A stretch of DNA of 63,951 nucleotides, counting the filler, from Kipferlia bialata (taxonomy: Eukaryota), in the NCBI GenBank assembly GCA_003568945.1. It is 7 parts of 6 records of this genome, joined end to end, with 100 filler letters (N's around TTAATTAATTAA, not from the genome) between each part and the next. Parts side by side here need not be neighbours in the genome. Positions count along the whole stretch, not along the records: positions 47,255 to 59,777 come from BDIP01001073.1; 6 more parts are not named here. One strand, given 5' to 3'. Numbering within the stretch: position 1 is the stretch's first letter; each line of letters begins with the position of its first letter. Shown here in pieces: positions 28,727 through 63,838 of the stretch. The notes under the pieces are model-generated. The model was given only the letters and a program-made list of their open reading frames with translations. It did no database searches and was not told where the DNA came from. Made by a program: the position numbers and the translations under genes.

Positions 28727-28772
<46 letters not shown>

Positions 28773-28811: not shown

Positions 28812-28856
<45 letters not shown>

Positions 28857-29970: not shown

Positions 29971-30001
<31 letters not shown>

Positions 30002-34453: not shown

Positions 34454-34491
<38 letters not shown>

Positions 34492-34703
34492 ACCCCCCCC
34501 CCCACCCCCTCCNNNNNNNNNNNNNNNNNNNNNNNNNNNNNNNNNNNNNNNNNNNNTTAATTAATTAANNNNNNNNNNNNNNNNNNNNNNNNNNNNNNNN
34601 NNNNNNNNNNNNCCCTTCCCTTTTCGGTCTTTCCCCCCCCCCCCCCCCTCTCTCCCCCTCTCTCTCTGTCTTGATGGCCACTCAAGCCTCTAACCCCCTT
34701 CAG

Positions 34704-38605: not shown

Positions 38606-38645
<40 letters not shown>

Positions 38646-40538
38646 AATATCTATATAGGCAGTATATATCCATGTACTGTATCTCACCCCCAGGAGCAGT
38701 GTGTCAACCAGGCCAGGGCAGGGGCCATACCAAAGGTGAGTATCAGGATACATACTACACAATTATCAGTATAACACAAAATACATATGTATGTTTGAAT
38801 ATGTATATGGGGCCAGGGCAGGGGCCATACCAGAGGTGACATGGATATATATGTGTATATACATCTATGGTAGAGTATTCTTATATGCACCTCCCTCACC
38901 CCAGGTGACTGTGCAGGACACAGCCCCACTGCACAGGGACAGGATGGACTGGCTCAACGATGAGGTAGATGCAGTGTATAGTATATATAGTATAGTATAT
39001 AGGATATATATAGTATATATACATATATCACTAGATAGGGACAGGATGGACTGGCTGAATGATGAGGTATGTACAGTGTATAGTATAGTGTGGTATATAT
39101 AGTATATAGTATACAGTGTATATGTATATATGCCACTGCACCGGGACAGGATGGACTGGCTGAATGATGAGGTGGGTATAGTGTATATATAGCTGTGTAT
39201 GTATATATAGAATATCAACAGGACCATTTAGCTCCCCCCATATATATATATATATATATATGCATTGTATAATACCATTTATGGAGCTCTCTCTCTCTGT
39301 TTATAACTACTATCATTAATCCCCAGGTTGTCAACAGGACCATGGAGCTGTACCTGGAGAACACAACGAGACGGTACGGGCATTGCTGTATACATATTAG
39401 AGTACCTTTTTTGTACTCCTCTTCCTCCTCATCTCTCCCTTCTTCTTTTTCTCTCTCTCTCTATTTGGCTAATCCCAGTGCCCACTGCTACTCCTCCTTC
39501 TTCTACCAGTCCCTGACCAGGACAGGGGGGTACAACTACGCAGCCACTAGGGTACGTCAGTACTGTATATACTGTATATATGTATATATGTAAATAGTAT
39601 ATATATATATGTATATGTGTGTGTATATGTGTATACCAGTCCCTGACCAGGACAGGGGGGTACAACTACACTGCTACCAAGGTATATACTATATGTATAT
39701 ATACACCTAAATATGCATATTGTATTGTCTTATTGTTGTACATGTGTAGTTGTGTGTAAGTATCTTACCCCTAGAGGTGGTCCTCCCGTCCCAATGTGTC
39801 CCTTGCCTGTCTCTCTATATATATACTTAAAGACATATCTCTCTTTGTGTATAGAGTGTATCTAACCCCCCGCAACCAAGGTATATTCTGTATGTATATA
39901 CACCTTAATTTGTTTATTATATTGTCTCACATCTAGAGATGGTCCTCCCGTGCCAAGGTGTCCAAATATCTATAATTTTATATCTATATAAGTATAGTAA
40001 TACATATATATATATACATCTAACACTAGAGATGGTCCTCCCGTGCCAAGGTGTCCATTGCTGACCTTGATGTGCTGTGCATACCTGTCAACTGGAACAA
40101 CACACACTGGACATGCATCGTGGCAGACTTCAGTCTCAAGGTATGTATATATATATATATTGGTATATAGTATGGGAATAGATAGTGTGTGAATATATAT
40201 TTGTGTGAATATATGTATATGTATACATACCTGTCATACATGTATTCATATTTATATACTCTATAGTAGTCTGTATATTCTTACCCTCAGTGCATCATGT
40301 ACTATGACAGTCTGGGTGGCATGAGGCCAGATGCAGTGTATATATATATACCGTATATACTATGTCTATATATATATGCCATATACCCTTAACCCTCAGT
40401 GCATCATGTACTACGACAGCCTGGCTGGCATGAGACCAGATGCATATATACGTATATATATATACCTTTTATTCAATGTAAACTGAGTATCTAACCTCAG
40501 TGCATCATGTACTACGACTCCCTGGGTGGCATGAGACC

Positions 40539-40569
<31 letters not shown>

Positions 40570-42183
40570 CTATATACTAAGTATCTAATAGCAGTGCATC
40601 ATGTACTATGACAGCCTGGGTGGCATGAGACCCGATGCAGTGTGCAATGTGGCCAGATACATACTGGACGACATACACGACAAGACACCGGAAATAGGTA
40701 AGAACTATATATATATATATATGTGTGTATATGATGATACTATATTCTATGTATATGTGGCCAGATACATACTGGACGACACACACGACAAGACACCAGA
40801 GATAGGTACAGGATTAACATGTATTTCCCATGCTCCCTCTCTCTCTCTCCCCTCACTTCCAGCCCTGTCGGACTGTATATCGGTATATCTCTCTATATAT
40901 GTGTATATATACTATATATATAGTGTATATGATCCCCCTCACCCCCAGGCCTTGACCTGTCAGACTGGGTTGGACTCGGCTACAAGGTGTGGTATTCTGC
41001 TGGACATATATTGTATATAGCTATCCAGATTGGTGGAGATTTATTATTGTTGCTGGTGCAAGGTATGGGAGAGGTGTAAATATATCTATGTGCTCTATAT
41101 GTATCCTAATATATATGTACTCTATATGTATCCTAACACCCCAGGTTGTGCAGCCCCTGCTGGACAAGTGCATTCACTCTAAATATGTATATATGTATAA
41201 TAACTAACGCATACACTGTATAGGTTCTTGTAGTATATATACTAACCCCAGGTTGTGCAGCCCCTGCTGGACATGTATCAGTCTTAATGTCTATGCTGTA
41301 TCTCTCTCTCTCTGCTTAATAAGCACCTATAAGCATTGCTTATGCCAGGTTGTGCAGCCCCTGCTGGACATGTGCCGGGGTCTGCCATACTCACACACCC
41401 TGGACATACCTAAGGTATATATATGACATAGATACTATATACAATATACTATATACTATATATACAAGTACACTATCGCTTTAGGTAGATATATGTATAT
41501 ATAATATATGATGCATATATGTGCCGGGGTCTGCCATACTCACACACGATGGACATACCAAAGGTATATATACATAGGATATATATACTATATATACAAG
41601 TACACTATAGCTTTACGTAGATATATGTAGATATATATATATGATGTATGTATGTGCCGGGGTCTGCCATACTCACACACCTTAGACATACCTAAGGTGA
41701 GTGTATATAGTACAAATACACAATAACTAGGAGTATAGGTGAGAGATGGGGGTTAGAGACAATAGATATCCCAATACTCAGGCCGCCCCCCCTCCCCCCA
41801 AGCCCCAGCCTGTGTACAGGGCACCGGTACCTGCCAGAAGACCAGTGCCCAAGGTATGTGTATGTGTATGTGTATGTATATAAGTACATACCCCAACCTA
41901 TCTCTCTATATTTATATGTATAATACATACATATGTATATGGCACCTGTACCTGCTAGGAGGCCAGTGCCTAGGGTATTTGCCTATCTCTCTCTATCTAA
42001 TAAGACCAGTGCCTAAGGTATGTGTATGTGTATATAAGTACATACCCCAACCTCTTTATATATGTGTTAATAATTAGTATATATATGGCTGCCAGGAGAT
42101 CAGTACCAAGGTACATATGTGTGTGTATCTCTCTCTACCTTTGTCTCTCTCACTATAGGAGGAGTCTGACGATGACTGCATCT

Positions 42184-42238
<55 letters not shown>

Positions 42239-42337
42239 AATCTCTATATCTCACCCCAGGAAGAGTCTGACGACGACTGCATCTCCTTTGACTGCTCCGA
42301 TGAGTATGGGGGGGAGGCAGAGGAGACAGACGACGAG
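34704..42337 (+). CDS. Ulp1/SENP (peptidase C48)-like protein with an AT-hook; many small exons, 5'-incomplete
   Basis: Spliced motifs DWLNDEVVN, CYSSFFYQSL...YAATRRWS, DVLCIPVNWNNTHWTCIVADF (catalytic His; Asp in VADF/YYDS region), CIMYYDSLGG; upstream KKRGRKPGS. The canonical QxNxxDCG motif was not found. Confidence 0.82.
34874..35540 (+). repeat. Array of 7 copies of acceptor plus exon 5' part (GCnnTGTATGAGTCCTCTGTsCAGTCCATGCTGA), period about 95-125 nt
   Basis: Copies at ~34875, 34970, 35064, 35191, 35291, 35393 and the intact exon at 35501, separated by AT-microsatellite spacers. Confidence 0.92.
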
Positions 42338-42564
42338 GTGGGGCAGTTATGTGTGTATCACTATATCTATAGATGTCCCCCCCCCCCCTCTCTCTCACTG
42401 TCCCGCCCCCTCCAACCTGGGCTCTCATGTAGTATATACCAGAATATATATATAATTATATATATACCCCCCCCCCCCCCCCCCCTCCCGTACTTGTTGT
42501 TTCCATATATGGTTCCCTGGCATAGTTTCTCTCTATGTGTCTGTCTCTCTCTCTTACCATCCAG

Positions 42565-43248
42565 ATGGTTCTCTCACTAGGAAAGTTCCCTGAGACCGAG
42601 AGCGTCAACCTCGAGAAGCTAGGTAACTCTCTCTGTCTGTCCTCTCTGTCTCCCTATATTGCCCTCCATATGTACATTATATACTTGGCACATACTGTGT
42701 ACTTCGCCTTGACCTCAATGGCTTGGTACTTTCTCTCTGTTCTATCTCTGTGTCTCTGTGTATATGCGGGTTCATACACTCTTTGTCCTCTGTACTGTAG
42801 TACTCCATTCTCTCCTCTCTCCCCTGTCTGCTTGCCGAAGGTATCTCTTCTGTCACCCATATATATATCTTACCCCAAGGCATGCCCCCCCCCCCTCTCT
42901 CTCCCCATCTCTATCCATCCACGCGTATATGTACTATAACTCATACACCTCCCTTCTGTCTCTCTCTAGACCCTTATTCTCAGGCAGCCGCAGGATGGAC
43001 TCCGCAGACAGGGGTGCCTTCAGAGGCGCCACAGTCGCAAGGTACCATACATGTATGTATGTATTTCTGTACATATTAAGAGGGAAGGGGGAAACAGTGA
43101 CATTATATAAGTGTCACCATTTCATTCATTTCTTTTCTTTTGTATGTGCCCTCAGTCTCTCTTACCCCCCCCCCCCCCCACGGGATGTCACCTTCACCCC
43201 ATTAATAATTTTCCCTCTCTTTCCCCATTTTCTGAGTGAATACATGAT

Positions 43249-43287
<39 letters not shown>

Positions 43288-43921
43288 GCCCCTTATTCCC
43301 AGGGATGCCATGGTCAAGGCACTCAAGGAGAGAGGAGCAGGTATGATATCTGAACATATTTATATGTATATCTATATATATTGTGTATAGGAGAAGGGCG
43401 TTTACGCAGGATATGGATAAGTGTATATGAAGGCAATCAAGGAGCAGGTATGATACATGTATGGATATATATATATATAGTGTAATGATTGCCCAATGAC
43501 GTACCATGTCATATATATATATATATATATATCTACACCCCTAATGTCAGACAAGGCCCTTGTTCACATCGAGCAGTACATCCCCCACCTGCTTGCCATC
43601 CAGGTACCTTATTCTAATGATTGCCACCTTATTCTAATGAGTTCCATATATACATTTGCATACGTATGTGGAATGAGGTACTCATATTATATAGAATGCA
43701 CTAATCCAATAGAACTGGGTGAAGGAGCACCGGTTCAGTGAATGTTCAGTTGCATAATAATATTACTATTTCATAGGTGTATAATTTACACTATTCTAAT
43801 GGGCGCTAGCACTAATCCAATAGAACTGGGTCAAGGAGCACCGCTTCAGTGAGGACAAGGACAAGAGCAGGCAGTACGGCACCATGCCCACATTCAAGTG
43901 GAAGTCATGCCTCAGGTATGG

Positions 43922-43959
<38 letters not shown>

Positions 43960-46292
43960 TGTACTTGTATGTATTCATTTAGACATCTTAAATACTATGT
44001 AGACTATATAACTATAGGCAGGCTAGTGAAAGTCATGTCTCAGGTACAGCTAATCTAATGATACTAATCTAATGAGTGTTGTTGCATATTCTATAGACCC
44101 TATTCTAATGACCTTATTCTAATGACTTCAGGTCCAAGAACAACTGGCACGGTGTGGCCACCCTCGAGTACGAGTACCTCATGGTGGTCTACGCCAAGGT
44201 ACTCCCCCCCCCCTCTCTCTTTACACCGATAGCTCTCTCTCTCCCTCTACACCCTTATATTCAGGCCATGTGTCTCATGGACTCCGCTGCTGACAAGATC
44301 AGGGTCATCGACAACGAGGCCAACGTGGGTATGTAGTAATTTCTCTCTCTCTCTAGAGAACACTATTAATGTAATTTTGTCTCCACCGTTGCTCTCTCTC
44401 TCTCTCTCTCTACACCCCTAATATGTAGGTGAGAACTACACCGTTGCCTCCAAGCAGCTCTGCCAGGCAGCTGGATTGTTCATGAAGGTCAAGGAGCTGT
44501 CCATCGAGCAGGTAATATAGTATATATGTATATGAATGTATATACATATATATATGTATGTATGTTGTATTTACATAAATATACATAATGAATTGTAGAT
44601 ATTATATTTTTATAGTTCTTGGACTGTTCATGAAGGTCAAGGAGCTCTCCATTGAGCAGGTATACACTACATAGTATATAGTATATATGTGAATTATTTA
44701 TATAGAGTTTCATATTGATTTATATGAGACTTGGTATACTGGACTGTTCATGAAGGTCAAGGAGCTCTCCATTGAGCAGGTATGCACTTTAGTATACAAT
44801 GTATATATATATGCTAATTGTATTATATATTCTAATGTCCAGGGTTCCATGGTTGCCGGCCACCCCCTCATCATCATATATATATATATATATATGATGT
44901 GTTGTTCTATATTCTAAAGAGTTCTCTACATACATGCATTTATATGTATACACATATAATTATTATTACTTTTTATTATATACAATTATTATGACTTTAT
45001 TATTATACATACTCCATTTACCCTCCAGGGCTCCATGGTTGCCGGCCACCCCCTCATCATGATACCCGTGGTGGCAGACTTCATGCTCAGGTACTGTATA
45101 TAGAGTATATCCACAACAGCGGTCCCCCCCACAGCCTCCCTCATCCTCACCCACCAGTCTCTCCATTCTCTCTCTCTCTCTCTCTCTCTCTTAGACCCTT
45201 AATGTCCAGCCTCTCCATTGCCTACGCCGAGCTCTGCAGAGTCGAGAACAACATCCGGTATGTGAATATGAGTATCCTGCTTCCCTTCTCTCTCTCCCCC
45301 CCCCCTCTACACCCTTATTCCCAGTGCCCTCCTTGAGATCAACGATGCCCCCAAGTCTCTCTCTCTCTCTCTCTCTCTCTCCTCGTCTACACCCTTATTC
45401 TCAGTGCCCTCCTTGAGATCAACGATGCCCCCAAGTCCCCCAAGATGAACCTCACACTCCCTAGGGTGTGCAAGGACATCCAGGTGTGTATTCACATAAA
45501 TACATACATATGCAAATTGTAAAATACAATTACATATATGTATCTATATATGTATTCTACTTTATATATATGTGTGCATATGGACCCAAGATGAACCTCA
45601 CCCTGCCTAGGTGTGCAAGGACATCCAGTTACTCTCTCTGTCTCTGTCTCTCTCTCTCTATTATTACTATTGATGTGTGTATAGTAGAGTTGAGAGTTAC
45701 TCTAACGACCAGAACAAGCTGCAGCAGGCTGCCTTCAGTGTGCAGGCAGTGGCCGCCCAGGACTGGCAGGTATGAATCTCTCTCTCTCTTACTCTTAGTC
45801 CATCAACCCTGCCATCCGTGACTCCCTCGACTACTTCTCTCTCCCTCTCTCTCTCTCTCTACACCCTTATCTGCAATAACATCAGTCCATCAACCCCGCT
45901 ATCCGTGACTCCCTAGACTACTTCAGCCAGGTGGCAGAGATCATCTCATGCTGCTTCCAGGGCAGGTATGTGCATGCATGAAGTAATTATACTTTGAATT
46001 AGGGTGTAAGCCACATACATACACTTAGTATATGTACTGTATATATATATTTCGTCCTCTCGCTTACCCTCCCAGGCACCACTACTCCCTTATAGTAGTA
46101 TATGTATATGTATATGTAGTATTCTAATGATCAGGCACCACTACTCCCTCAAGGAGACCATGGAGGGTGGAGAGGCACAGTGCGTGGGAAAGGCACTTGC
46201 CTACATGAGGTATGTATTGTATATATATATATATATATACAGAGAGAGAGGCACAGTGCGTGGGAAAGGCACTTGCCTACATGAGGTAGATA

Positions 46293-46330
<38 letters not shown>

Positions 46331-46858
46331 TGCGGAGGCAGGGCACTTGCATACATGAGGCATGTTATTTTCGCCCCTCTCTCCCTCTGTTTCCCTCTTT
46401 CTCTACACCCTATCTCTCTCGCACTACACCCTTAATGTCAGGAGGGCCAAGGAGGTCAGGGATGCCCTCAAGGCACCCAAGGGGACAGACAAGGTATGTA
46501 TATGTATAATTATGTATATGAATGTATATACATACCCAAGGGGACAGACAAGGTATATATATGTGTGTGTATATACATATATTCTCAGTCTGAGAGGCAA
46601 CAAGATCCCAACATTCATTAACGAGAGTATTGTATTCTTTATAGTGTATCTGTTTTATTTTGTGTTAATCTGGCACCTATCTAACCACCTAGATCCTTGC
46701 CAACCGTTACAATGACTTGTGGCCAGTCTATCTCTCTTTCTTTCTATGTGTGTATGCTATTCTCACAATAGATCCTCTACAAGCGCTACAACGACGTGTG
46801 GAGAGGCAACAAGAAGCAGGCGTCTCTGCTTGACGGGGAGCTGGCTGAGTACGTTCTC

Positions 46859-46893
<35 letters not shown>

Positions 46894-46996
46894 CCTCTAC
46901 ACCCTTTTCTCACCCCAGGTACGAGGAGAAGAACGGCAACATCTACCACCACCGTGTCCCATCCACCCAGAACATCACATTCCCCGCTCCATACAG
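42565..46996 (+). CDS. BRO1-domain (BROX-like) ESCRT-associated protein, 3'-incomplete
   Basis: Spliced peptide includes FPETESVNL, IEQYIPHLLAI, PTFKWKSCL, TLEYEYLMVV, ASKQLCQAAGLF, LSIAYAELC, CVGKALAYMR and YEEKNGNIYHHRVP, matching the BRO1 FxW, YE, AAGxF and NxxIYxxxVP signatures. Confidence 0.85.
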
Positions 46997-47115
46997 GTAT
47001 TTATACGACAAGATAGAGACAGTGTATCCTTTATATCAGGTGTACATAAAGCAATACCCCCTATCTGCCTTTAATAACGTGTATTTCCGCTTGCATTTGC
47101 GTTTGCCGCTCCATC

Positions 47116-47154
<39 letters not shown>

Positions 47155-47254
47155 NNNNNNNNNNNNNNNNNNNNNNNNNNNNNNNNNNNNNNNNNNNNTT
47201 AATTAATTAANNNNNNNNNNNNNNNNNNNNNNNNNNNNNNNNNNNNNNNNNNNN

Positions 47255-47303
<49 letters not shown>

Positions 47304-47916
47304 GAAGTATATACTATATAGACACTCGAGTGAGTCACTTCATAAGGCTTATACACTAATATTCAGTAGACACAGGTTGGAACATGCTTGGGAAACACGT
47401 GTGAGACGTGAATGCCAATGGGTAGTATACATATACGTATTTGCGCTAGCGTTACTACATAGTCACCCGTATTACGTCTTCTCGATATCTCCCCCCATCT
47501 CCCCCCAGTGTGTATCTATATAGTGCACATTATCTACCAGTATGAGACACACACGTAGAGCATAGTACCGTACAATGTACGTACAGTGTTCTGTTCACAT
47601 ATTTCTGCTCCTCTTCGGTCATATTGTCCCTCAGAAGGGGAACGAGACCACGCATATCCGGCCAATGGCTGCTACCTCACCACAGTGTAAAGTCCAGCAG
47701 AAGAGGGAACACAATACACACCACTACCCAGGTTGACCGGACCCCTAAGGCAAAAAGACCTGTTTTTGTCATCGAGATTCCATAGGGGTGCAGTCTCGAC
47801 TTGCTTCCAAAGTAAAGAGGTCTCTCTCTCGCATTCGACAGCTACCAGCCCACACATCATTGGAGGAGGTCTCCTATGGACTGTGTTCCAGATAGGAGAG
47901 GCATAATTGAGGGTGA

Positions 47917-47949
<33 letters not shown>

Positions 47950-48512
47950 GGACTGTGTTCCAGAGTCTGGAACACCTCTGGAATCTGGCCTCTCCAGTCT
48001 GGACCAGACAGGAGAGGCCTAATATGGGGTATAGGAAAAGAGGGAGGGAGAGAGAATCTCTAGCCCAGAGGGGTGTCTGTTTGAGTGTGCGTTTCTGAGT
48101 TGATAACATTGTAGGGTTGTATTGTATAGATCTGCTGCGGTTGATGTACTTACATCGATGATTGATATTCATCTTCAAATCTTTGTACGCGTGGGGGCCT
48201 TAGCTTCAACCAATACCAAATGGTTCAACCAATAGGCCGACGACGCCTCGTATCAAACTTGGTCAGTTAGCAGCGCGTCATTGATATACTGATTCCATAC
48301 CCAAAATGAGAGAATCGGATTCTTGCTCTTGTCTCCTTCTGGAAGTGCCGACACACACGTATACACTGTTTACTATACAGTGCCACAGTTTCGTCTCTTG
48401 GTTGCTTCACGCTCTCAAGAGAACAGTTCAGTTGGGGGGGAGTCTACAGCGCTAAGCAGCCATCTACTGGTACTTTTTCGGCTCCCACTTTCTTCTCCAC
48501 ACTTGTGACCGC

Positions 48513-49364
48513 ATGGCCCGTGGATTCAGTCTGTTCAGTGGAAAGAAGGTCCTAGCGCTTGATGTGGAGTGTGTTGCCAATGGAAAGGGGCACAACGACC
48601 GTGTTCCTTGCTGGGTGAGTCCAATTTTGGGACCTAAACTGTAAATATTCTTCTCTGACAACAGGTGGTGATTGTCAACGAGAAGGGCAGGGTACTACTC
48701 GACCTCAAGATCAAGGTTACTGACATGGTGTCGCCGCTCACCAGGTAAGAGTGTCTCTGAGAATTTATGTAAATCAGTCTCATCGTGAGATACGTGGTTC
48801 CAGCATTCACTAACCACTGTATACAAAAGTACTCTTGATGGCCTCAACGAAAGGTTTTCCGGTGTCACCGCTGCTATGCTGCGGAGCGCCCTTCCCCTCG
48901 ACACCGTGATGCGTAGGGTTCACAAGGTCCTCAATAGCCCAGCCATCACTCTTGTCGGCCAGAGCATTGAGAACGACATTGCCTGGCTCGGTCTGGAGAA
49001 GGGAGTGCATTACGGTGACAGCGAGGACATCGCCGAGCATTTCCGTACCTACAACGAGAAGTACAAGGACTACAACTACTTTTCCCTCGTACAGACGGCC
49101 TATGGGCTCCTCGGGACCTCCATCCAGTCCACTGCCCACTCTCCCATCGAAGACGCCAAGACAGCCATGCGGCTGTATGTGGAGTGGATCAAGACAGGAC
49201 GGGATGCTGAGGGAGGGGCCCGGTTGACCCGAATGCGCTACAAGAGGCAGTTCCCCCAGGAGACGATGCCCACGGATATCCACTGTGACGGGGTGTGCGG
49301 TGCCAAGTACCAGCAGGCCAGGTGCATATGTGGCCAGCCTTGTGTGGAGAGGAAGAGAGAGTAG
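48513..49364 (+). CDS. Rex4/ISG20-like DEDDh 3'-5' exonuclease with a Cys-rich C-terminus; 3 exons
   Basis: Exo I VLALDVECV, then LTRFSGVT, Exo II LVGQSIEND, Exo III HSPIEDAKTAMRLY. Introns at ~48615-48665 and ~48746-48852. Confidence 0.88.
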
Positions 49365-49704
49365 AGGGAGAGAGAGAGGGAGAGGAGCCCATCCACCCCT
49401 GTGCGCTCGACCCACTACCCCCGGGAGAGGGACTACCGTGATGAAGAGGAAGACTACGTGGTCAGCCAGCCCGAGGGGAGTGTCGCTGCGGACTGGTACT
49501 GAAAATAGTATAGTTGACGTATATGTACTGGGTCCAGCTCTCGGGGACTTTGGCACCTAGCTGTAAATAGAGTATACAGCCTGGAACTACTGTTGGCGAC
49601 TGTATTATCCGACTGTTAGTCATAACTTAGGACGAAAGTTAAGGAAATCTGATCTGTTCTATTACATAAGGAAAAATAGTACAAAGAGTGCCTTGATATA
49701 CACC

Positions 49705-50080
49705 TTACATGGAGACTGATGTGCTCTCTCTCTCCATCTCCCTAGAGACAATCTCCAGGAAGGCATCTTCGAGTCTAGGCACCCTCACAGTCCAGATAAC
49801 CCCCTTTGGAAGTGTAGACACATACGTGTACAGTGCCACAGGGTCATGTCCGTGGGAGAACGCAACCTCCACACTATACAGACCGTCACTCTGAGGTGAT
49901 ACTCTAACACTGTCCACTGCTACCCCTAGCTGTCTGATGTCTCTCTCTGTCTGGTAACCATCGGATACACCCTCTAGTACTAGTATAGTGGGTGTACTGC
50001 ACTGTTGGCGAAGGCCCCCAGGGGACCCGACTGTGACAACGGTGCCACGTACCTGACAGTTAGTTACATCGATGAATAGA

Positions 50081-50118
<38 letters not shown>

Positions 50119-53100
50119 TGTGACGACAGTGCCACGTACCTGATGTAAGTATATGAATGAACATAGCAATACAGTATGTATATGTCGAGTGAGAGATGGG
50201 GAGATAGACTCTATCTCAGATAGAGAGAACTTGAGCAAGTGGAAAGTATGAAGAGCACGGATATATACGCACCATAATAGCTGCGCTCTGGGCTAATGTC
50301 TCTGCCTCCCCCATGTCATGGGTGTTGAGCAGTAAGAATGTACAGTATGTACACAAATATTACGCACTACCTATATTACATATATATATACAGACTCACC
50401 ATGATTGCTGCTGAGTGTGCGACTGTCTCTGCCTCCCCCATGTCATGGGTGTTGAATATATCTATAGTGTACTATATAGTAATATACATAGTACATAGTA
50501 TACTAATGTATATTATATACACATACCATTATTGCAGCAGAATGGGCCAGTGTCTCTGCCTCCCCCATATCGTGTGTGTTGAGCAGCAGGGTGCTGTCTG
50601 TGTTGAGTATAGCACTCCACACCGATCTCTTGGTCAAAGGGTCAAGACCGGTGGTGGGTTCGTCTGTCAGAAGGACACCATGGGTACTAGTACCTGGTAT
50701 TGAAATATACCTATTAATGACATCACATATACATTAACATATATACATACAATGTAAGGAGAGGAGGACACCATGGGAACTGGTGCCTGGTATTAATATA
50801 TATATGTAAGTATACATAGAGCTACTTGAATAATGGATGATATCCCATGAGTAGGACACCATGGGAACTGGTGCCTGGTATTAATACATGTATATCATTA
50901 TATATAGAGATACTTGTATAGTGGGCTCGTCAGTCAGAAGGACACCATGGGTACTGGTACCTGGTATGAGTATATATATATGAGAATGTGTCAGAGCTAC
51001 TTGGATGATGGATGGTGGGCTCATCAGTGAGTAGTACCCCGTTGCGACTGGTACCTAATGGGTTAGTATCAGTAGCAAAGATAATGAGTACGAGGATCAT
51101 TACATGAACCAAGTTCACTGTATAAAAATGTATGGTAGTTATACCTAGAATAGCCATGCAGAGAGACAGCCTCCGCCTCATCCCACCGGAGAGCTCCCCA
51201 GACCGCTTGTATCTGTGTGTAGTGAGCATGGTTAAGGAGAGCAGACCCTCAACAACCTCTGTTAATGTCACACCAGGGCTAGTCTGCAGACCCCTGATCC
51301 TAGCTATCGTGTAGAGATGCTGCTCTACAGTGAGGAAGGGCCAGACACAGTCATGTTGGGGCATGATGCTGATGTGTTGCCATGCATCCCTTGGGTGCTG
51401 GGTGAGGTCTGTGCCGGTGCTGAGGAGGGCAGTGCCAGCAAGGGCAGACAGGTGGCCTATAAGTAAGTATACTTAGTATAAACATGTAACTATACTAGTA
51501 TACTTAATAGTTCGTTTAGTATAGTATAGTATACGTGCTGAGGAGGGCAGCGCCAGCATGGGCAGAGAGGTGGCCTGGGTGTTAGTGTATTGTAATTACT
51601 ACCAGAGTAGCTCAGTATAGTGTAGTGTTGTGAATACAATAGTGCTGTACTATAACAGCCCAATACGTGGGTGCCTGCATGGGCAGAGAGGTGCCCTATA
51701 AGCGAGATATGATACAGGGTGTAGGTGCCCTGGGATTTGGTATCACAATAGAAACTAGAGGAGATGCACAAATATCAAAGAGTGAGAACAAGAACGAGAC
51801 CATGTAAAACCGAGACAGAAAGAGACTGACTGTCTCTGACATCTTACCTGTAACGACGTTGGCCAGGGTAGTCTTGCCTGGAGTTAGTGAGCTCAGACGA
51901 GTGTCACACATGAGATAGATAGATGGAGTCAGCATGCGCACAGAGAGTGTCATTATCATTAACAAATAATGCAACGAACATATTGGATATATAGTCCTCA
52001 AGCCGCTATCGGTTACGAAAGAGAGAGGGAGAGAAGATGCCATACCTGAACCAGAAGCCCCAAGGAGAGCCACCGTCTCCTTATCTCTGACACCAAGGTT
52101 GACTCCATTAAGGGCCCTGGTGCCCTTGGGGTATTGGTACTCTATACCCTTTACATCAAGAGCCAGACGCTCCTCATGACAACAAGGCTCTAGAACCTCC
52201 CCTTGTTGCATCTCTCTCTCTCTCCCCTTGGTGACCTTAACTCTAGGAAGCAGATAGAACGACAACCCAAGACAGACGGCAGAGGCGAAGAGAGACACTA
52301 GGTTCATGCTTAGGGTGTCGGAGAGCATCTTAGTGGCATCAGTGGTAGTAAAGGCCAGTCTCATATCAATAATGAAGGCGAGTATGGGTGCAACGCCCAG
52401 GGGTGGGATGGCCTCAATGTAGAACCCGATAGAAAAGAATATAAGTGTAAAGACGCTGGTGGCGATAGACGCCGCCTTCACACTGTCTGCAACGGTGCCA
52501 ACGAGGAAACTGAAGGAGACGACAGCAGCAACACCGACACCAAACGTGACTGCAAACATCGTGAGTGAGTCGGAGCCGTGCTCAAAGCCTGGTAGCCCCA
52601 GCGTGTATCCTGCGGCTATTGCAACCACAGCAGCCACTAGTGCGACACATACCCACCATAGTAGGGACACCACGTGAGAGAGTGTCCGCCCCACCCCGTG
52701 GTAGGATAGGAGTGGGGCCTGCTCTGCGGCGGATATGATGTGGATAGCTGGGAAGGGCACTAGCAGAAGCAGGGCCAGGGGCACAATGAAGACTGTCACT
52801 ACCTTCATTAGGCTGTAACTGCCTGTCTCAAGGGTTGGGTCGAGCATGTAAGGGTAGGACGACACTGACACGGAGAGAGAGAAGTCCATCCCGGTGCCTG
52901 GGTACTTGGTATTAACCAAGGAGCGCAGCCAGGCTTCATCAAGTCTTGCAACTAAGTCACTCGCTATACCTGATAGCGTTGGTCTAGGTGACGATGGTAG
53001 TCTGAGCAACACCTCACTGTCCTTCCCATCCTCTACCACCATTCCGGTTGGTATACGAACACGGCTGCTAAAAGAAGGAGGGTTGGTGGTACGACCCGTC

Positions 53101-56100
53101 TTTGTGTTGAAAGAGGTGATACCAGCAGTGTTCTGCATATGTACAGTGTGGTGCCTTGTGTTGTAGTTGGTATCTGACAGGAACCATGGAAGGTATGAGT
53201 GCAGAGTATAGCTCAGGGCTGGGCGAGTCTCACTCACCGTGTAGCCAAAGAAGTCTACAACTCCTATGGGTCCCATATCGGCGAGGAACACTGCGCTTCC
53301 AGACCCGGCGTTCTCTGCTGAATACTGGAGTCCTGAGTCGTATATGTTCTGGTAGACGCTGTTCTCATGGAACTCAGAGAGGTACTCTTCCATGTCACAC
53401 TCAATCAGAGGCGTCCTAAGGGCGGTGTGGATATACTCCGTGTCTGCCGTGGTGTCACAGGAGTCTCTCTGCCACTCAACAGAGTCTCTCTTGCAGGTAT
53501 CCTCACATGCACTGATGTCAAAGCCGGAAGAGGCTGTAGTATCATGGTACTCATGATAGGGCTCCCAATACGTAGAGCACTCCTCTACACACACAAAGAC
53601 GTACTCATCGCATGTCGAGTCTGTGGTGGTAGTGTAGAGGGGTCTCATGTAGGGTAGGACTCCAGGCACCACATCGCCATGTGGGTCAGGGTATACACCG
53701 GAGTCTATCCCCGCATAGAATGCACCGAGGTGGGCTGACAGCCAGGTAGGGTCCACCTCCATACTCTCAACCTCTGTACCCTCCCCCACCTGCCCATTGG
53801 CTAGGAGGCTATCAAGGTCAGGGTGATTGGCGCTGTTCTTGACCTGAAGCGTAGCAGGACCAGCATTAGTGTACCCAAACATCCCACTCAACGTCCCTCC
53901 TGATGGATAGGTCTTGACTGCTGGTGACTGCACGTCTAATCCCTCGTACGCAGCCTCTGCCAGACACACCCCATCTGCATACCCGTCTAGACCCTCTGCC
54001 CAGCACAACTCAGGCCTGTCAGATCTACAGGCTGTCATCATGTCCTCTGTTGTGTAGGGAGGGGATGGGTAGAGCATAGCACAGCATATCTCACAGGCCG
54101 CACTAGCCGCTTCCCATGTCTCATCATACGCAGTCTGGAGGGTGTTCTGGAACGAAGGCTCCAGAGTGCCTACTAAGAGACTCGCTGCCAGCACTACAAT
54201 CCCAGACATCACCGCAAACATCACTACAGTGAGGGTAATGCCAACTGCTACCCTTGCAGGTTCGGGCACTGTTACACCGCTAGCCACGAGGACACTTGTG
54301 GCCTTGAGTTGTATGAGAGTCCAGAACTTCTGACGCAGAGAGGGGTGCTGGTCTGTCTCCATGACTGTATCCACTGGCACTGATGGGCCTACACTCTCAC
54401 TAGCCTTGGTCAATGGGGTCAATCCCACTTGTTGAGGCCCAGTAGATGCAGAAGGGACAGAAGAGAGCTCCTCCTGCACACCACCTACCACACTCAGGAA
54501 GTACTCAGTGAAAGAGGGTCTGTCTAGGACAAAGTCTGTGACAGAGTCATGTGTCGACAAGTACTGCGCCAGGGCAGGCATGAACCCCTGGCTCTCTATA
54601 CCTCCCACTCCTGCGCCTCCCTTGGTAAAGGAGAACCGGACTGTATTAGGCGATGACAGGTGTAGCTGGCACTCCACCCCGTACTGTCTGGCCAGTAGAC
54701 CCAGTTCTGACTCCAGTAGTGGACGTGGGTCACTAACACCACCGGTACTCTCACACCAGAGAGTGGCGGTGATGCCAGCTAGAGAGTGCCGCAACTCTAG
54801 AGGGGTGCCCTCTGCCAGAACCCTACCCTTCTCCACCACGGCTACAGTGTCAGCCAGTTTCTCAACCAGTGTCATGTCGTGACTAGTGACTAACACACAG
54901 CTCTCAGGGCAGCGCAGGGAGGCAATGTACCTCCAGATTAGTAAACATATTATAGACAGAAATTACGTTATAGGTATTAAACATTATAGATATATTTGTT
55001 TAATATATATGTACCTCCAGATGACCCGCTTGGTGACTGGGTCCAGCCCTGTGGTGGGCTCATCAAGGACAACAAGGGGTGGCCTGACGGGTTAAACATA
55101 TTCTAATAGATGAACATGAATACGAGAGAGTGTCAGTATGTAGTATATACCCATTGGCATTGAATGATACCTGCCAGCTGTAGCCATCAAGAGAGAGAGC
55201 CGGCGTATCATGCCACCGGATAGTTGGGAGGCCTTCTTGTTGGAGGCATCTGCTAGGTCCACCGCAGTGAGGAGCCGATCGATCTCGGCCTCAGTGGCAG
55301 CCCGTCTCTCCTTGCGAGATAGACTATCTCCCTTGCCCCTGAAGGCTCTGATGGCTAGGGCAACGCGTAGGTTCTGACGGCAGGTCAGATCGAGCCACAC
55401 GTTTGTAGAGTGTTGAGGGCAGAGACCGACGCGTTTCTTCAGGAACCGTACGGAGTACGGTGAACGGAGATCGTACCCAGCGACCTGTACCTGGGTGTCA
55501 CCAGTGGTGCTAGGGTCTGGAGCGACTTCTCCCGATATCACAGAAGAGAGGGTACTCTTTCCAGCCCCATTAGAACCAACCAGGAATGTGACAGTGTCTG
55601 GCTGGACGGTTATGTCGACCCCCCTCAACGCTCTGACCTCCTTCTGAGAGGCCCCTCGGCTGGTCTTGTATGTGACAGCTAGGGACTTGATATCTACAGG
55701 GGGTCCAGCCTGACTAGACCTTGCCAACCAGAACTGGGGTGTGAAGAGAAACATGAGCGGCAGCCCCCGGTATCCATCACCCTTACGCACATGTGCAATG
55801 TACACACCAATAGCACCCAACACAAGATACTGCCATAGAGCAGCAACAAGTAGGGTACCCACTGACGCCACAGAATAGAGACAGGTCTCCTCTCCAGAGA
55901 CCTGGTAAGAGCAGTGCTTGGATGTGTAACGCGCAGCATCCCAGAAATCACTCAGGGAGAGGGTGGTGGAGCAGTTTAGGACGTCCTCCACGCATGCTCT
56001 GGTTAGTATGGAGTACAGAGACTCTAGGAGACTGCAAGTCATGTACACGGGTGATGTAAACTCCATGACAGCCCTCACGACAGGTGGGGAGATGGTTGGG

Positions 56101-58340
56101 TCGAAGATCGAGTTGTCGAAGATGATGTAATACACGAGAACGAGGCCGAAAGAGCCAAACGTGAGGCCAAAGGCTACTGCAAAGGACGTCTGGGGGTTGT
56201 TGAACAAAGCAACAACCACAAGACTGAATCCCACACAGAAGAGGGACGGGAAGAGGAATACTAGGTACTGGGCCCAAAAGGTGGCTGCAACGGAATCAAA
56301 GGGGGATATACCGACAAGGTGAGCAGCGAGTACATCTAGAAGTGCAGTGACGGCCCCAAAGACTGTGAGGATGCCAAACCAGTTCAGCCAGTACTGAACC
56401 TCAGTCACTCCTGGGGTGAGTTGTGCATGTATATATCCACAATAAGAGATATCCATAGCTACAATATTTACAACACTCTCAATACCCTTACCTAGCCGTC
56501 TGATAGCTGGAAGGTTGGCATGCTTATCCTCGGCCAGAAACATGACATACCACAGGCTCTGGCAACGTGAGAAGAAGCAGAGACAATGGAAAGAATGCCT
56601 CATTCGTTGTTTATACGAGGCTAGTAGGCTATGTCAGACTACATTTGTATGAATACAAATTGAAATTGCAAATGATATACGTATATATGTATATACCGGT
56701 GCCACCATAGAAATGACTATCGTGATCTAAATAGAGGACATAGTATCTGGCATACGAGTGGTTAATGGGAATGCATAAGTGTATACGAATATTTATACGT
56801 AGGTTCATGTTAGTACACACATATATACCTGTGCCACCATGGCTATGACTATCGTGATCATGATAGAGGACACTATGCCATTGGCACCGCCAGAGGGGTT
56901 GGGCAGGGCTGCGACCTAAGTGTCAGCACAGTATTTGGAATATATACCATGTATATGTGTATGTATCTGTGAAAACTACAATAGAATATGGGTTCGGCAG
57001 GGCTGCTACCTAAATGTCAGTGCCATACTACTATAGTATGATACTGATATAGTATGATACTATATCTTCATTAAGCAATACATCTGTATAATACATTATG
57101 AATACAATGAACACAATGGTATAAGGGTTGGGTCCTAGTATTCATTACAAAAGTACATACACTACAATATAGCGTAACAGTGCTGTTAGCGATATACAGT
57201 AGATGTCTCCACTGTCCCTAGAAGGCCTATCTTAACGTACCTCTACGTTGAGGTCGACAGGGGTACCGGTGATGAGAGAAGCTAGCTGGGTATGAGAGAC
57301 GGAGAGGGGGGGAGAGAGAGGCATAGAGACAGAGGCAGAGATACTACTAAGGAGAGACACATATACCTGTCCGTCTATCAATGCCTGTAGCTGCAGGGCC
57401 ACCCCAGAGAACTCATCGGGCTTCCCCACTTCCTGAGAATGAAACAGGGACATGGAGAGTATATACATGTGAGTACATATGGGGAGAAGGTATTAATACA
57501 TTATTCTGCCAGAGTGTCAGTGTATCCAGACAATGTACACATATACATATATGTATATATTCAAGAGTACCTGTGCCAGGGGGTCTGTCCCTATTGGGTC
57601 ATCGGTGTACATGATGTCTAGCATGGTCCTGTTCAGCTGGGTATGAGTATATTGTAGGACGAGACAGAGATCTACAATGAATAACAAATATGAAACAAAT
57701 CTGAATAGGCTTATGACATAGGCAATGTGCTTGTCATCATGTACATGTATGTGGTATGATGGTGCCATGGGGACACTGGTATCTATGAAATCTAAAAGGA
57801 ACTCATATACATAAATATATACCAATATGAATGAATATATATATATATATCAGTCCATGTATACCTGTATGTGGTAGGATGGTGCCATTGGGACAGCGGC
57901 ATCTATATGTACTATACTACACGGTGTATACATATATATATATATCTATATCATACACCTGCATGTGGTATGAGGCTATTCATATATTTACATATTCATT
58001 AACATATATACTTCCGTATATACCTGGATATGATAGGATGGTGTCATTGGGACAGCCTCATCGAAGCCGTCAAAGACAACACTGAGGGCACTGATAGGAG
58101 ATAGAGAGAGAGAGAGAAGCAATACTGAGGGCACTGATATCAGAGAGAGAGACAGACAGAGAGAGAGAACACAACAGTGAGGAGCAGTGATATCAGGTAT
58201 AGAAAGAGACGATATACAATGTGGCAATGTATATATCTGATACACTACCTTGGTATGAATGGCGACTCCTCCAGCCACACTACATAGAATACCAATACTA
58301 TAGTGACGTTTACACATTAGTACTCTATACTAAGATATAT

Positions 58341-58376
<36 letters not shown>

Positions 58377-59433
58377 CGGTATGAATGGCGCCTCCTCCAG
58401 TGCCAGCTGCTCTGTGGTGACTCCGTATCTCGCTAGGTTGGTGGGAGTAGGGTCTAAGTCCCCACTCTACATGTGAGATGCCCCAAACAATTGACCTCAA
58501 GGAACGGATCGATGGATATGTCGGGAATACACATATATACCTTGAATAGCCCCAGTGTCAAAGAGAAAGATAGTGGGTAGTTGATATATGTATATACACT
58601 ATCTATACACATATCCACCTTGAATAGTCCAAGTGCCACGTGGGTATCCAGCTCAGCCACCGTGGTATACCTGGGAGGGTGAGTGGAGATACAAGAGATA
58701 GTACGTAAATATATATATATATATATGTGTGTGTGTGTATATATACATACACCGAATAACTGGGAGGGTGAGAGGAGATATATACTATATAAGTTAGTAC
58801 GAATACAAAGAGAGACAGCTCACTTTACATCAGTGTCACTTACCCTCTAACTGTCTCACTGCCCCACCCCAGGCCCTCTCTTATACCCTCCATGACTGCA
58901 CTTGTACCAGCGTTGATGGGGGCATACATCATCCACTATATATATATATATATACATATTAGAAGTAAGTTGTCACATACCCTCTAAGTGCCTCAGCTTC
59001 CCATCCTAATCCTTCTCGTATACCCTCCACCACTGCACTTGTACCAGTGTTGATGGGTGCGTACATCATACTGACACACCCATGGTCAGGGTCAGTATCG
59101 GCATCGACCTAACGAGTTAGTGCAACACGACTAACACTAATCATACACACACACAGACACAATACATACCTTGCATGTACGAATCTACATGGGGTTGTAT
59201 GTACACCATACTATATATATATGAGTATACCTTGCACATGCCAAGTGTATCCATTCCTGTGGGCGTGTATGTAGTGACCATGAACAGGGGAATGTATGCA
59301 TTATATATGCCATACACCATGTATATATGTAGTCAATGGGTGTATACCTTACATATTCCCATGGTGTCCATGGTTATTGGGCTGTATGTGGTGACCATGA
59401 ACAGGGGGAGGTACAGGAACACAGTCGAAGTGA
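49705..59433 (-). CDS. Full-size ABCA-subfamily transporter (two TMD/ECD-NBD halves), 5'-incomplete
   Basis: NBD1: GSNGAGKST, VGLCPQH, LSGGMIRRLS, VVLDEPTTGLDP. NBD2: GASGSG|KTT (split by an intron), MPQHD, LSGGMRRRLS, TDEPTTGLD. Regulatory motifs PSFTEYFL and PRLEDAFL; stop at 49705. Confidence 0.93.
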
Positions 59434-59877
59434 CTGATGTCAGAGAGAGAGAGAGAGAGAGATAGAGTGGGAGGAAGGTACAGGAACACTGTCGAAGTAA
59501 CTGGGGTCAGCGGGAGAGAGTCGCACACATATGGGGAAAGTAGTAGAGAGAGGAATGTATAGGAACACAGTGGCAGTGACTGGGGTCACAGAAAGAGACA
59601 CACACACACATATTGGGAGAGGAAGAGAGAGAGGAATGTATAGGAACACACTGGCAGTGATTGGAGTCAGAGCCTGAGAGAGAGGATTAGGGGGAGAGAA
59701 GGAAGGTTGCAGACGCAGGGGAGGGAGAGTGTGTATGTGGGGGGGGGGGGGGGGGGGGGGGGGGAGGGGAGGAAAAANNNNNNNNNNNNNNNNNNNNNNN
59801 NNNNNNNNNNNNNNNNNNNNNTTAATTAATTAANNNNNNNNNNNNNNNNNNNNNNNNNNNNNNNNNNNNNNNNNNNN

Positions 59878-59932
<55 letters not shown>

Positions 59933-59939
59933 TACATAG

Positions 59940-60961
59940 GGAACTTTGACCATCCATATTGAACAGGTCATCCCTATGAGTAAAATGTATACATATACCG
60001 GCATGCAGAAAGGAATGGTAACTAAGAACACACAATGAACAGGTCCCAACGGAAAAGAGATATTCAGAGTCACTAGGAGTAATGAAACAGGGCAGATACT
60101 AATATAGGCATAGAGAGGAAGGGGGGGGGGGATAATGGATAAGATGGGGGACACTTAGAAGGGGAGGGGGGGTGTGCACACGTACTTGTTGCTGAATCTG
60201 ATGATGTTGTCGGATGCATACATAAACAGGCATATAGACAATGAACATTCAGTGAGCAGGCCCCAATGGATAAGAGGTATTCAGAGTGACACGTACTTGT
60301 TGCTGAATCTGATGATGTTGTCGGGTGCGTTGGGGTTGTTGGCTGTGAGCATACGGGTCACCTCCTCATCAAGCTCCTTCTCAGACAGGGGGACCTAGAC
60401 ATGAGGCAGAGAGGGAAGAAAGAGCACGTAAAAAGCACCTGGTGCAAATATATTATACTGAGATGTATTCATCGCTAAGTCAGTGCCCAACGTATCAGAC
60501 AGAGGATACTCCAGGCACAATAGACTATGAGACTATTGGTATACTCGCCAGTACTAAGTCTAGTTCTCTGCCCATAACAATCCATAGACTAGTAAACCAA
60601 AACCACCCCCACCATCCATTACCACCCCCATACACACCCTCCTCTGGTATAGACACCCTATCCATGCCTAGACACTACCTGGTTCTTGGGGATGATCACA
60701 TTGGCCTGGGTGGTCTCAGGGGTGTCCTTGTCGGCTCTGCGGCGTGCAGGCCGCCTAGCAGCCTTGCCCTGAGGTTTCTTCTCCTATTGTGAGCATAATA
60801 GAGTGCACAACCACGCCAAAACAGCAGGAACAACGAAAGCGTGTCACAGTTCACCCATTCTTAGGCACTCACTGTGCTCAAATCCCCCCCTAGAACCATA
60901 AAATACACTAAGCATGTGAAAGAGTTACCGATTCCAGCTATACCTGGGGAACTGGAGCCAT
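59940..60961 (-). CDS. DNAI1: Outer-arm dynein intermediate chain 1 (IC78/DNAI1), 5' part only
   Basis: IIPKNQ|VPLSEKELDEEVTRMLTANNPNAPDNIIRFSNK matches the recalled DNAI1 N-terminal motif (ELxEExTRxLTANNPxAPxNIxR). The first exon (MAPVPQ, ATG 60961) is tentative. Confidence 0.85.
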
Positions 60962-61099
60962 GATCGACCACTGGCTTGCTGAAGAACTCAAACTTCAGCC
61001 TTCTAAGGAATCAAAAAGACTAAAGGGTGTAGACGCAGTTTCTTGACAAAAGGGTGCAGAGTACTGGTAAAGGCCGACTGTCAGCTTCACGAACTCAAG
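60962..61099. promoter_or_regulatory. Putative compact bidirectional promoter between DNAI1 and Atg18
   Basis: Only about 140 nt separate the two inferred divergent ATGs. Confidence 0.5.
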
Positions 61100-63838
61100 A
61101 TGCAGATTGAGAAGAACGAGAAGGGAGGAGGTGAGACAGTTAGTTAATATGTATATTGCCAGATTTGAGGTAGTTGTAGAAGGCAGAGAAGGGAGGTTCT
61201 TAAACAGAACGAGTGTAATGTTGTTTTGTCGTCTCTAGAGCTCAATGTACTGTATTTGGGTTATATTGCTGGTATTATGGGTGAGCAGGGCCATTTTTTA
61301 CACTTACTTGTCGTGTTAGGCGGTGTAAGTAGTGTTTCAGTTCATATATGAGATGACACTGATTTGGTTGATACTGGTACAATACTTGTTCAGACAGACT
61401 GGGACTAGGTCAGAGATCTTCCATTCGATTGTCTGTTGTCTTACTCGTAAGTTTTGTCTGCTCTTGTGTCTTCTAATGCAATGTATACGTACATATATCA
61501 CCCCACTTGTCTCTCTCTCCCTCACCTGTCAGACCTCCTCTTCTGTGGGTTCAACCAGGACAATGGGTGCATTGCAGTCGGAACCAAGGTGTGTGGTCAT
61601 ATAGCACATGGTACCATGACTTCCTTCTCCGGTTGTGTTGAGAGGGAGAGTCGGGCAAGTGTCAATATGCTATATATCACCTGTCATCTACTCGCACCCG
61701 GGTCTCCCATGACAAATATTAATATACCATCTCATATGTATACTGACACCCAGGTTGGGTTCCGCATCTTCAACGCCGACCCCTTTGTGCGTATGTTCAG
61801 CAGAGACATTGCAGGACACAAGGGTATGTACATTTGATATGTCACACGCTTATCTATAGGTGTCTCATGGTTAAAGAGTACTTATCCTCAGTCGACATCC
61901 GCTCCAGACAAGGCTCTGGAATTAATATATATCCTATTTTCATTCATCTTAGCTCTATTCAGTACTTATCCTCAGGCGGTATCCGTTCCGTTGAGATGCT
62001 GTTCCGCACCTCCATCCTGGCCCTGGTCGGGTCATCTGTCTCACCCCCATACTCCCCACACAAGGTATTATATGATTGTATGGATATCTCTCATGTAGAA
62101 GGGTACTATCTGTGTCACCCCCATACTCCCCACACAAGGTATGTAATGGGTAGGGGCATACTCTATGTATATCCCTCTCTTCATATACATATATATATAT
62201 TTCTGTTTACTAATACTGACCCCAGGTTGTCATCTGGGATGACCACAACAGGCGCATCCTGGGAGAGATCAACTTCAGGTATGGAGTCCCATATGTGTGT
62301 ATTTCAGGGACATATATATATGTATGAGTAGTGCTAGTGTGTGTTTTCATATTATGGTGTTACTATAGATGGTTTTTCCTTCTGCTGCCCCTCACCCCCA
62401 GGTCCATGGTCCGTGCTGTCAAGCTGAGAAAGGACAGGTATGTGGATGAAAGAGACACATAGCATATTTATTGCTACTCGTAGATAGATATATGTATATA
62501 TACAGTCTCTCACCCCAGGATCGTGGTTGCTCTCAAGCAGAGGGTGTACGTGTACTCCCTGGCAGACTTCTCCTTGATCGACCAGGTTTATATACATATA
62601 TATATATTGACAATAGTACATATACACACATATATATATATATATATTAATAGTACTGGTATTAGTGCATAAGTGTACTCCCTGGCAGACTTCTCCCTCA
62701 TTGACCAGGTATAGATGCAAATATAGATGCATATATATATGTATATATATACATACTAGAAGTATATGACTTTGTGTATATGTGTACCCCCTGGCAGACT
62801 TCTCCCTCCTTGACCAGGTATATATATCCATATTATTGAATTCTTATATACTAATACTGGAGGATACGTGTGTGGTATATTTAGGGTTGTTAATGTGTTT
62901 ATAGAATACTCCTAGGTATAGCACTCACCCCCCAGATTGAGACCCTTGACAATGAGCTGGGTCTCCTTGCCCTGTGTCCATCCACATCCACGGCATCGGT
63001 CATGGCATGCCCAGGTATATTATATATATATGTATTGTATGTATATATATATATACATATGGGTGTATATACATGTGTGTATATATACATACCTATCCAC
63101 ATCCACGGCATCGGTCATGGCATGTCCAGGTGTATGGTATATACTATATACTATATGTATTATATATATACTAAATGGTACTCCCTCTATATATATATAG
63201 GATGTGCCCATTCACATCCACTGCATCGGTCATGGCATGCCCAGGTGTATATACGTTATAGAGGCATCTATATATTTATAGTTTATACTCTCATTCTCTG
63301 TCCCCCCTCACCATCAGGCATCAAGGCTGGTCAGCTCCGTATCCAGACCATATATATTTATATATGAGTATATATAGATCTATCCCTCACCCCTAGGCAT
63401 CAAGGCCGGCCAGCTCCGTATCCAGACATCCTCCTCCACCCCTCTCTTCATAGAGTGCCACCAGACTGCACTCCAGGTATATAGATATGTATATATACAT
63501 ATATGTATATGTACTCTATACTCCCCTTCTTTTGCACCCTATCTTCATAGAGTGCCACCAGACTGCACTCCAGGTATTTTCACTCTGAGTTGAATACCAT
63601 TATCATTGAGGAATACATGTGTTCATATTTGTGTATCCATATTTGTGGTAACCCTCACCTCCAGTCCATCTCCGTCACTCTGGATGGATCCATGGTGGCC
63701 ACAGCAAGTGTCAAGGGTATGTGTATGTGTATAGTATTCTCATTGTCTGTGTCTCATATACTTGTATATATATATATATATATATAAGTATATGTGGATA
63801 TATGGATGGATCCATGGTGGCCACAGCCAGTGTCAAGG
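61100..63838 (+). CDS. ATG18: PROPPIN (Atg18/WIPI3-4/Hsv2-like) WD40 protein, 3'-incomplete
   Basis: MQIEKNEKGG|DLLFCGFNQDNGCIAVGT, GFRIFNADPF, VEMLFRTSILALVG, KVVIWDD, VRAVKLRKDRIVV, IETLDNELGL, IECHQTAL, DGSMVATASVKG. The F/LRRG motif lies beyond the window. Confidence 0.9.

Follow-up and report, generated by a model that had tools for sequence, protein, structure and literature searches.

Duplicated mutually exclusive exons are whole exons that carry both splice sites, keep a conserved phase and show synonymous-biased divergence, and the yeast HML/HMR loci and trypanosome VSG archives hold variant copies that are not expressed themselves, next to an expressed gene or in its vicinity. The VNTR in intron 7 of human F7 has a unit that spans the exon-intron boundary, such that identical donors follow one another and the first alone is used; as described in that part of PMC1557585 it concerns one locus, the donor side only and 37-bp identical units. 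Failed strand annealing together with polymerase theta yields, in worms, tandem duplications from ~100 bp up, and those of the helq-1 and brc-1 mutants are head-to-tail copies of a synthesised stretch with a median of ~1 kb, identical to each other and, in the sections of PMC8654963 that deal with them, not tied to splice junctions. Moreover, introns can be gained by tandem genomic duplication across an AG|GT-like sequence (as outlined in PMC3265369). Kipferlia bialata is the one fornicate reported to be intron-rich (PMC5874029) and its spliceosome is reduced (PMC6679479).

We report that introns of K. bialata contain partial copies of the ends of their neighbouring exons, here called echoes, and that this class, beyond the single case in an ABCA transporter gene pointed out in a first-pass annotation, is the real finding. 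The window, i.e. the whole stretch of DNA that was analysed (63,951 nt from assembly GCA_003568945.1), has six linkers (44 N, TTAATTAATTAA, 44 N) between 12547 and 59877, which join separate scaffolds. Genes of this one window were modelled by hand, with 105 exons and 96 introns in total; every frame is open, and each junction is GT-AG with the exception of one TG acceptor. The genes at 1-14900 and 47260-49700, the exon 23971-24041 by a gap and the 5' ends of two genes lie outside the modelled set. The gene at 60961-59880, which we take to be dynein-intermediate-chain-like, is cut by a linker and is unrelated to ABCA, and a GC-rich long-exon gene at 7360-12235 (minus strand), presumably eIF4G-like, has almost no repeats. 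Echoes were searched for by aligning exons with neighbouring introns, with the following result.

14932..63716, no single strand: whole set of 96 introns, with 111 echo matches in 59 introns, of which 108 were kept (58 donor-side, 50 acceptor-side); exon-to-neighbour-intron alignment.

The three matches that were dropped are a match in low-complexity sequence that lay 27 nt away from the boundary, a 19-nt match that is probably due to chance and a copy beside a 962-N gap (see below). A self-comparison of the window gave 145 direct repeats less than 1.5 kb apart, and an echo was detected in 76 of 192 adjacent exon-intron pairs compared with 29 of 9888 non-adjacent pairs; hence, the echoes are not due to chance. 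Donor-side echoes copy the 3' end of an exon and lie downstream of it, with the GT kept after 54 of 58, and acceptor-side echoes copy the 5' start and lie upstream, with the AG kept before 45 of 50. As a class, they are adjacent copies in direct orientation that include the splice site and some intron, that is, tandem duplications spanning the junction, with a period of ~100-110 nt (first-period medians 109 and 97 nt). Their median length is 37 nt, they cover at most 79% of the exon, and in many cases a tract of (AT)n, (CT)n or (AG)n marks their end. Echoes are always positioned beside their own exon with up to five per intron, each adds ~97 nt of intron length (r=0.87), and the donor echoes stand ahead of the acceptor echoes in 15/15 introns having both.

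A blind repeat scan gave 3.4-5.1 matches per kb in intron-rich genes and 0 matches in both the intergenic DNA (3.9 kb) and the two long ABCA exons. As the near-absence of repeats from the GC-rich gene at 7360-12235 indicates, the echoes track intron-rich, microsatellite-rich genes. An event specific to ABCA is not supported, since such echoes are present in 8 gene models, including genes that we take, by their motifs, to be ATG18-like, MOCOS-like and BRO1-like. The model at 35501-46996 (plus strand) joins a part that is presumably a Ulp1/SENP-like protease with the presumed BRO1-like part in one open frame of 34 exons; it may be a real fusion or two genes, the latter because the second part starts with an ATG at 42565 behind an AG. 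Approximately seven acceptor-side copies precede exon 35501 (34822-35538, plus strand); the upstream exon was left unmodelled and these copies are outside the count of 108. At 36357-37426, an identical 38-nt exon-end copy (37389-37426) lies beyond the 962-N gap. It is the third match dropped from the statistics, and probably represents the same sequence written twice at the gap.

The ABCA gene and the parts of it that matter here are as follows.

49705..59433, minus strand: ABCA transporter gene with 17 modelled exons and 16 intronic echoes; model against deposited protein, echo scan.
58981..59108, minus strand: ABCA exon, functional copy, 128 nt, phase 0 to 2; model equal to P0001.
58933..58980, minus strand: 48-nt spacer comprising the true donor, an (AT)n tract and, at 58937-58936, an AG that is weak but in frame; sequence.
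58844..58932, minus strand: echo, an 89-nt copy of the exon 3' end, 72/89 identical, no gap, then GT; alignment.
58834..58843, minus strand: copied intron start behind the echo donor, 9/10 nt equal to the true intron start; alignment.
58760..58779, minus strand: acceptor-side remnant in the same intron, 19/20 nt equal to the true acceptor 58690-58671, with little exon sequence left; alignment.
50694..51144, minus strand: ABCA intron with four acceptor-side echoes, each another synonymous version of the start of the Walker B exon; echo scan.

The gene has two TMD-NBD halves with ABC2_membrane_3 and ABC_tran domains. The K. bialata protein P0001 is named ABCA with PF12698 and PF00005 (precomputed), the long ABCA exon is 100% identical to it, and comparison of our model with the deposited 1914-aa protein gave 1914/1914 identical residues; the first copy (59108-58981) is therefore the annotated exon. 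The start of the deposited protein lies inside exon 59433-59348 (minus strand), and the scaffold end probably truncates the N-terminus, because the frame stays open 20 codons further up, with an acceptor; the linker at 59778-59877 sits just upstream of the modelled exons.

The ABCA echo is the longest of the 108. By blastn the match to the exon extends over 99 nt (81.8% identity, E 8e-21, gapless) and includes 10 nt of intron, and, as these agree almost completely with the start of the true intron, the copied stretch crosses the junction. The exon ends GG|gtatgt and the echo GG|gtaagt, in phase 2 in both, which agrees with the earlier statement that the donor was kept in the same phase. Likewise, the indel-free echo of about 90 nt, the translations of exon and echo as quoted and the exact count of 8 synonymous and 6 non-synonymous differences (29 codons compared) were all reproduced. 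The echo was also said to start in an (AT)n tract with no acceptor: the tract is present, but so is the AG at 58937-58936, 3 nt upstream of the echo, which would splice in frame in the exon's place.

Such a pattern might arise if two haplotypes had been written in tandem during assembly, which a short-read draft with microsatellites would invite, and the copy beside the 962-N gap is probably one such case. A read-derived unitig (58756-59368) spans the ABCA exon and echo with 0 differences at a depth of 370 (neighbours 329-449) and a second one covers 50857-57822, although the run may be the window's own source, such that this tests the assembly path and adds no second sample. We regard an artefact as extremely unlikely.

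As a source of the echo, the first-pass annotation pointed to a paralogue and proposed a search for other ABCA genes. Capture from another ABCA gene at a different genomic locus would fit 81% identity with a conservative pattern, and a draft genome may be incomplete. Protein searches covering 370 shorter and 2832 near-length candidates as well as 50%-cluster representatives returned only the host protein and one 37% repetitive match, with no second ABCA N-terminus and no second full-length locus matching the echo. Furthermore, echoes are found across all types of gene, with as many as five in one intron and always next to the exon that they copy, and we therefore consider this origin very improbable. 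No second allele was seen in the culture, where depth over the long ABCA exons corresponds to one unitig without variant letters among the DNA pieces listed; a metagenome scan with the long ABCA exon gave 38 pattern matches, none of them a relative, and a search for a second K. bialata isolate or strain found none. With no paralogue, echoes beside their own exon and no second allele, the source would, as far as these searches go, lie outside the organism's own genome, in other alleles or close lineages. An mRNA-templated origin was rejected by reasoning, because the splice sites of the intron are retained in the echoes, which end at the border of the exon.

What the echoes derive from can be approached through their differences from the exon. 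In a dead copy, mutations accumulate at every site, while the exon retains silent changes, so the ratio of 4-fold to 0-fold divergence should be at most ~2; simulated dead copies passed through the same detection gave 1.72-2.05, with an omega expectation of ~0.5. For the pooled echoes, mismatches at codon positions 1, 2 and 3 are 0.086, 0.050 and 0.220, and 138/2166 0-fold and 142/555 4-fold sites (0.26) differ, corresponding to a ratio of 4.0 (cluster bootstrap CI 3.1-5.3) and an omega of 0.23 (CI 0.17-0.31; 0/3000 resamples reached 0.5), i.e. outside what dead copies would give (4.0 vs 1.7-2.05). The ratio is alike on donor and acceptor sides and outside ABCA, and ranges from 3.6 to 4.4 when one gene at a time is left out. 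Changes at 4-fold sites number 142 compared with ~69 expected with base-specific rates, and when one half of the sequence was used for detection and the other for scoring, the counts were 38/708 (0-fold) and 49/156 (4-fold). Echoes of the same array compared with each other differ at 40/470 0-fold and 31/117 4-fold sites (ratio 3.1), and of the changes private to one echo 45/95 are synonymous (23 expected).

The differences are thus mostly silent, which suggests that the echoes, taken together, probably stem from other working alleles of their own gene. This bears on the earlier reading of the ABCA echo as a fragment of a different functional version. The pooled excess supports it for the class. 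Taken singly, the ABCA echo has a ratio of 2.1, with 9/17 nucleotide changes synonymous (p=0.22 vs dead copy), and falls within dead-copy expectations (ratio at most ~2, omega at least 0.5). Since the excess is seen in the pool and not in this one echo, the inference is right for the class and could not be drawn from the ABCA echo.

Amino-acid changes in the echoes are milder than random (mean BLOSUM 0.22 vs -0.48; 13% radical vs 30%), yet 11 of 14 gaps shift the frame, which would indicate that the echoes were once functional and are now decaying. Stops (4/161, with 3.5% expected if neutral) do not discriminate. Synonymous changes favour neither copy in codon usage (112 vs 112), no CpG-like spectrum was detected, and after the first 5 nt the mismatch shows no increase away from the splice site. 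Divergence at 0-fold sites is higher in fast genes (97/1084) than in conserved genes (40/1041), which fits alleles but is confounded with age.

If the echoes were instead plain same-molecule tandem duplications decaying in place, the silent excess would have to come from exons mutating faster than copies located in introns. This would account for the ABCA echo on its own, for the frameshifts and stops, for the 11/108 echoes identical to their exon and for an age gradient, the far echo being more diverged than the near one in 14 arrays, less in 6 and tied in 6 (p=0.025). It is difficult to reconcile with a ratio of twice the ceiling, with the ratio among echoes themselves, with the conservative amino-acid changes and with the absence of a CpG-like spectrum, and it requires a rate of change at silent sites of the exon ~3 times that of the same stretch 100 nt further on. 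We consider this explanation unlikely.

The same low omega might mean that the echoes form a maintained reserve, like silent donor cassettes, with DNA-level conversion returning their sequence to the exon often enough for selection to act against damaged echoes. Omega is low also between echoes and in private changes (0.33), amino-acid changes are conservative, most splice dinucleotides are kept and all four gametes occur at the sole informative site pair (1/1). Conversion frequent enough would, it can be argued, erase synonymous differences, but 4-fold divergence is 0.26; moreover, most gaps are frameshifting, mismatch is flat with distance from the splice site, and the retention of GT and AG is what 6% decay predicts. 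A reserve of this kind appears rather improbable. A broader version is put forward as a speculation with a small chance of being correct: across the whole genome, the introns would act as a living archive of alleles, whose exon-end copies are deposited by aborted recombination with divergent partners and return to the exons by recombination at a rate that keeps them codon-intact. If true, approximately one exon-end copy per intron would add up to >100,000 if the window is typical, and every splice junction would work as a miniature donor cassette and directly document sex in a lineage in which it is unobserved.

Whether echoes are translated today, as mutually exclusive or alternative exons, depends on their splicing. 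Spliced contigs were taken from a run presumed to be RNA, with joints GT..AG; such contigs drop rare forms, and minor use of echoes is therefore possible. One region with such joints is the following.

43500..46760, plus strand: BRO1-like part with 13 echoes; echo scan, spliced contig.

Here, a contig at depth 452 follows a model where the first donor and the last acceptor are used and bridges at least 9 of the 13 echoes (five listed joints span 7, and contiguous pieces 2 more), among them a 33/33 identical acceptor echo at 45325-45357; the other four, with no bridging piece among the rows listed, were left uncounted. A contig at depth 3 bridges 2 echoes in ABCA. The main mRNA hence skips 11 echoes in total (9 at depth 452, 2 at depth 3); the ABCA echo 58932-58844 is outside these. 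For that echo, the AG at 58937-58936 would give an open frame between the flanking exons and a protein 12 residues shorter, and low pooled omega would be expected of an alternative exon, but this AG scores below all 95 true acceptors and is without the branch-point motif that 67/95 of them have. Across the class, the second splice site that an echo lacks shows no excess in any of the three frames (AGs before donor echoes 40/38/32; GTs after acceptor echoes 25/23/23), and the frameshifting gaps likewise argue against translation. One further place speaks in favour of it.

26621..27331, minus strand: intron of 711 nt containing five acceptor-side echoes, each of which has an AG, upstream of an exon with TG as its acceptor; model and echo scan.

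The exon in question (26620-26555, minus strand) is needed for the open frame. Either its TG acceptor is used or the nearest echo (26763) took over with a new small intron, and this exon is the best place to look for an echo turned functional. For the echoes in general, present-day translation seems quite improbable to us.

Our preferred reading, to which we assign a probability of roughly 55%, is that the echoes are junction-spanning tandem duplications copied from divergent working alleles during aborted recombination repair, and that they decay in the intron. A break in an intronic microsatellite would be repaired by invasion of the homologous chromosome, synthesis would run through the splice site and ~40 nt into the exon before aborting, and the end would be rejoined by polymerase theta, leaving exon tail plus donor downstream or acceptor plus exon head upstream; with repair templated on the homologue, the other allele would be the source of the new copy. 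A duplication that is identical at first and later recombines with a different allele would have an equal outcome that is indistinguishable here. Selection would remove copies with the whole exon or in the wrong order, and half-exons would be tolerated because splicing would require an acceptor with a donor after it, an order that the intron does not offer. Where RNA exists, the main mRNA joins the first donor to the last acceptor. New copies would form beside the working junction and push older ones inward, the intron growing by ~97 nt each time.

K. bialata is listed with PolQ, Spo11 and Hap2 in Supplementary Data 2 of PMC8516963, and the sections of that source on repair and meiosis give metamonads as lacking Ku-type end joining and fornicates as lacking Rad51A but keeping two Dmc1. 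The junctions of the echoes, where microhomology or a templated insertion would be expected from polymerase theta, are blurred by microsatellites. As to whether the intron part of the unit was duplicated along its length, 18/104 flanks lie above the 95th percentile of controls (median percentile 0.79), in a test limited by low-complexity flanks; clear similarity at 18/104 would be unlike young same-molecule duplication and may count for copying from alleles. Several points count against it. Outcrossing in the past among lineages ~0.2 apart at 4-fold sites is implied, and such allele divergence (0.34 in ABCA) is very high for one species; sex is unobserved in metamonads according to the same sections of PMC8516963; no second allele or strain was seen, and the ABCA echo is compatible with a dead copy. 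Contrary to prediction, flank-similar echoes are no less diverged than the others (S/site 0.074 vs 0.069). Break repair alone leaves the narrow ~110-nt period and the intergenic absence unexplained, and the basis is one window with 8 genes.

If the allele reading is true, the genome of one culture records many past alleles, and population diversity and outcrossing become measurable in a metamonad, a group whose sexual process is, in the relevant part of PMC8516963, described as unobserved. Whatever their origin, the echoes account for much of the intron length in the window, are a trap for gene prediction and constitute a large natural test of splice-site choice, where a reduced spliceosome ignores perfect decoy acceptors upstream of the true one. 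A description of such exon-end echoes was not found in the open-licence literature (subscription papers being outside the scope), and in the main text of the K. bialata genome paper the string 'duplicat' occurs 0 times.

Compared with duplicated mutually exclusive exons, the echoes are likewise tandem copies with synonymous-biased divergence and conserved phase, but they comprise at most 79% of the exon, carry one splice site and show no frame enrichment for the other. Compared with silent donor cassettes, they have no dedicated system that is evident, they belong to housekeeping genes and they carry frameshifts. The Kipferlia echoes share with the F7 VNTR, as described in part of PMC1557585, a unit across the exon-intron boundary and use of the first donor, and differ from it in being present in most introns, on both sides, with a ~100-110 nt period and codon-aware differences. 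The tandem duplications that create introns in the portion of PMC3265369 concerned with them have one counterpart here, the 84-nt ABCA intron 55014-54931 (minus strand; 1/96 introns), where a 14-nt direct repeat across both junctions makes it a candidate for intron gain by tandem duplication; the echoes, in contrast, lengthen existing introns. Finally, the head-to-tail copying of a stretch from ~100 bp seen in the worm mutants (in the corresponding sections of PMC8654963) resembles what we describe, and the Kipferlia echoes differ in that they are found in a wild genome, at ~1.1 per intron, with a narrow size and as diverged copies.
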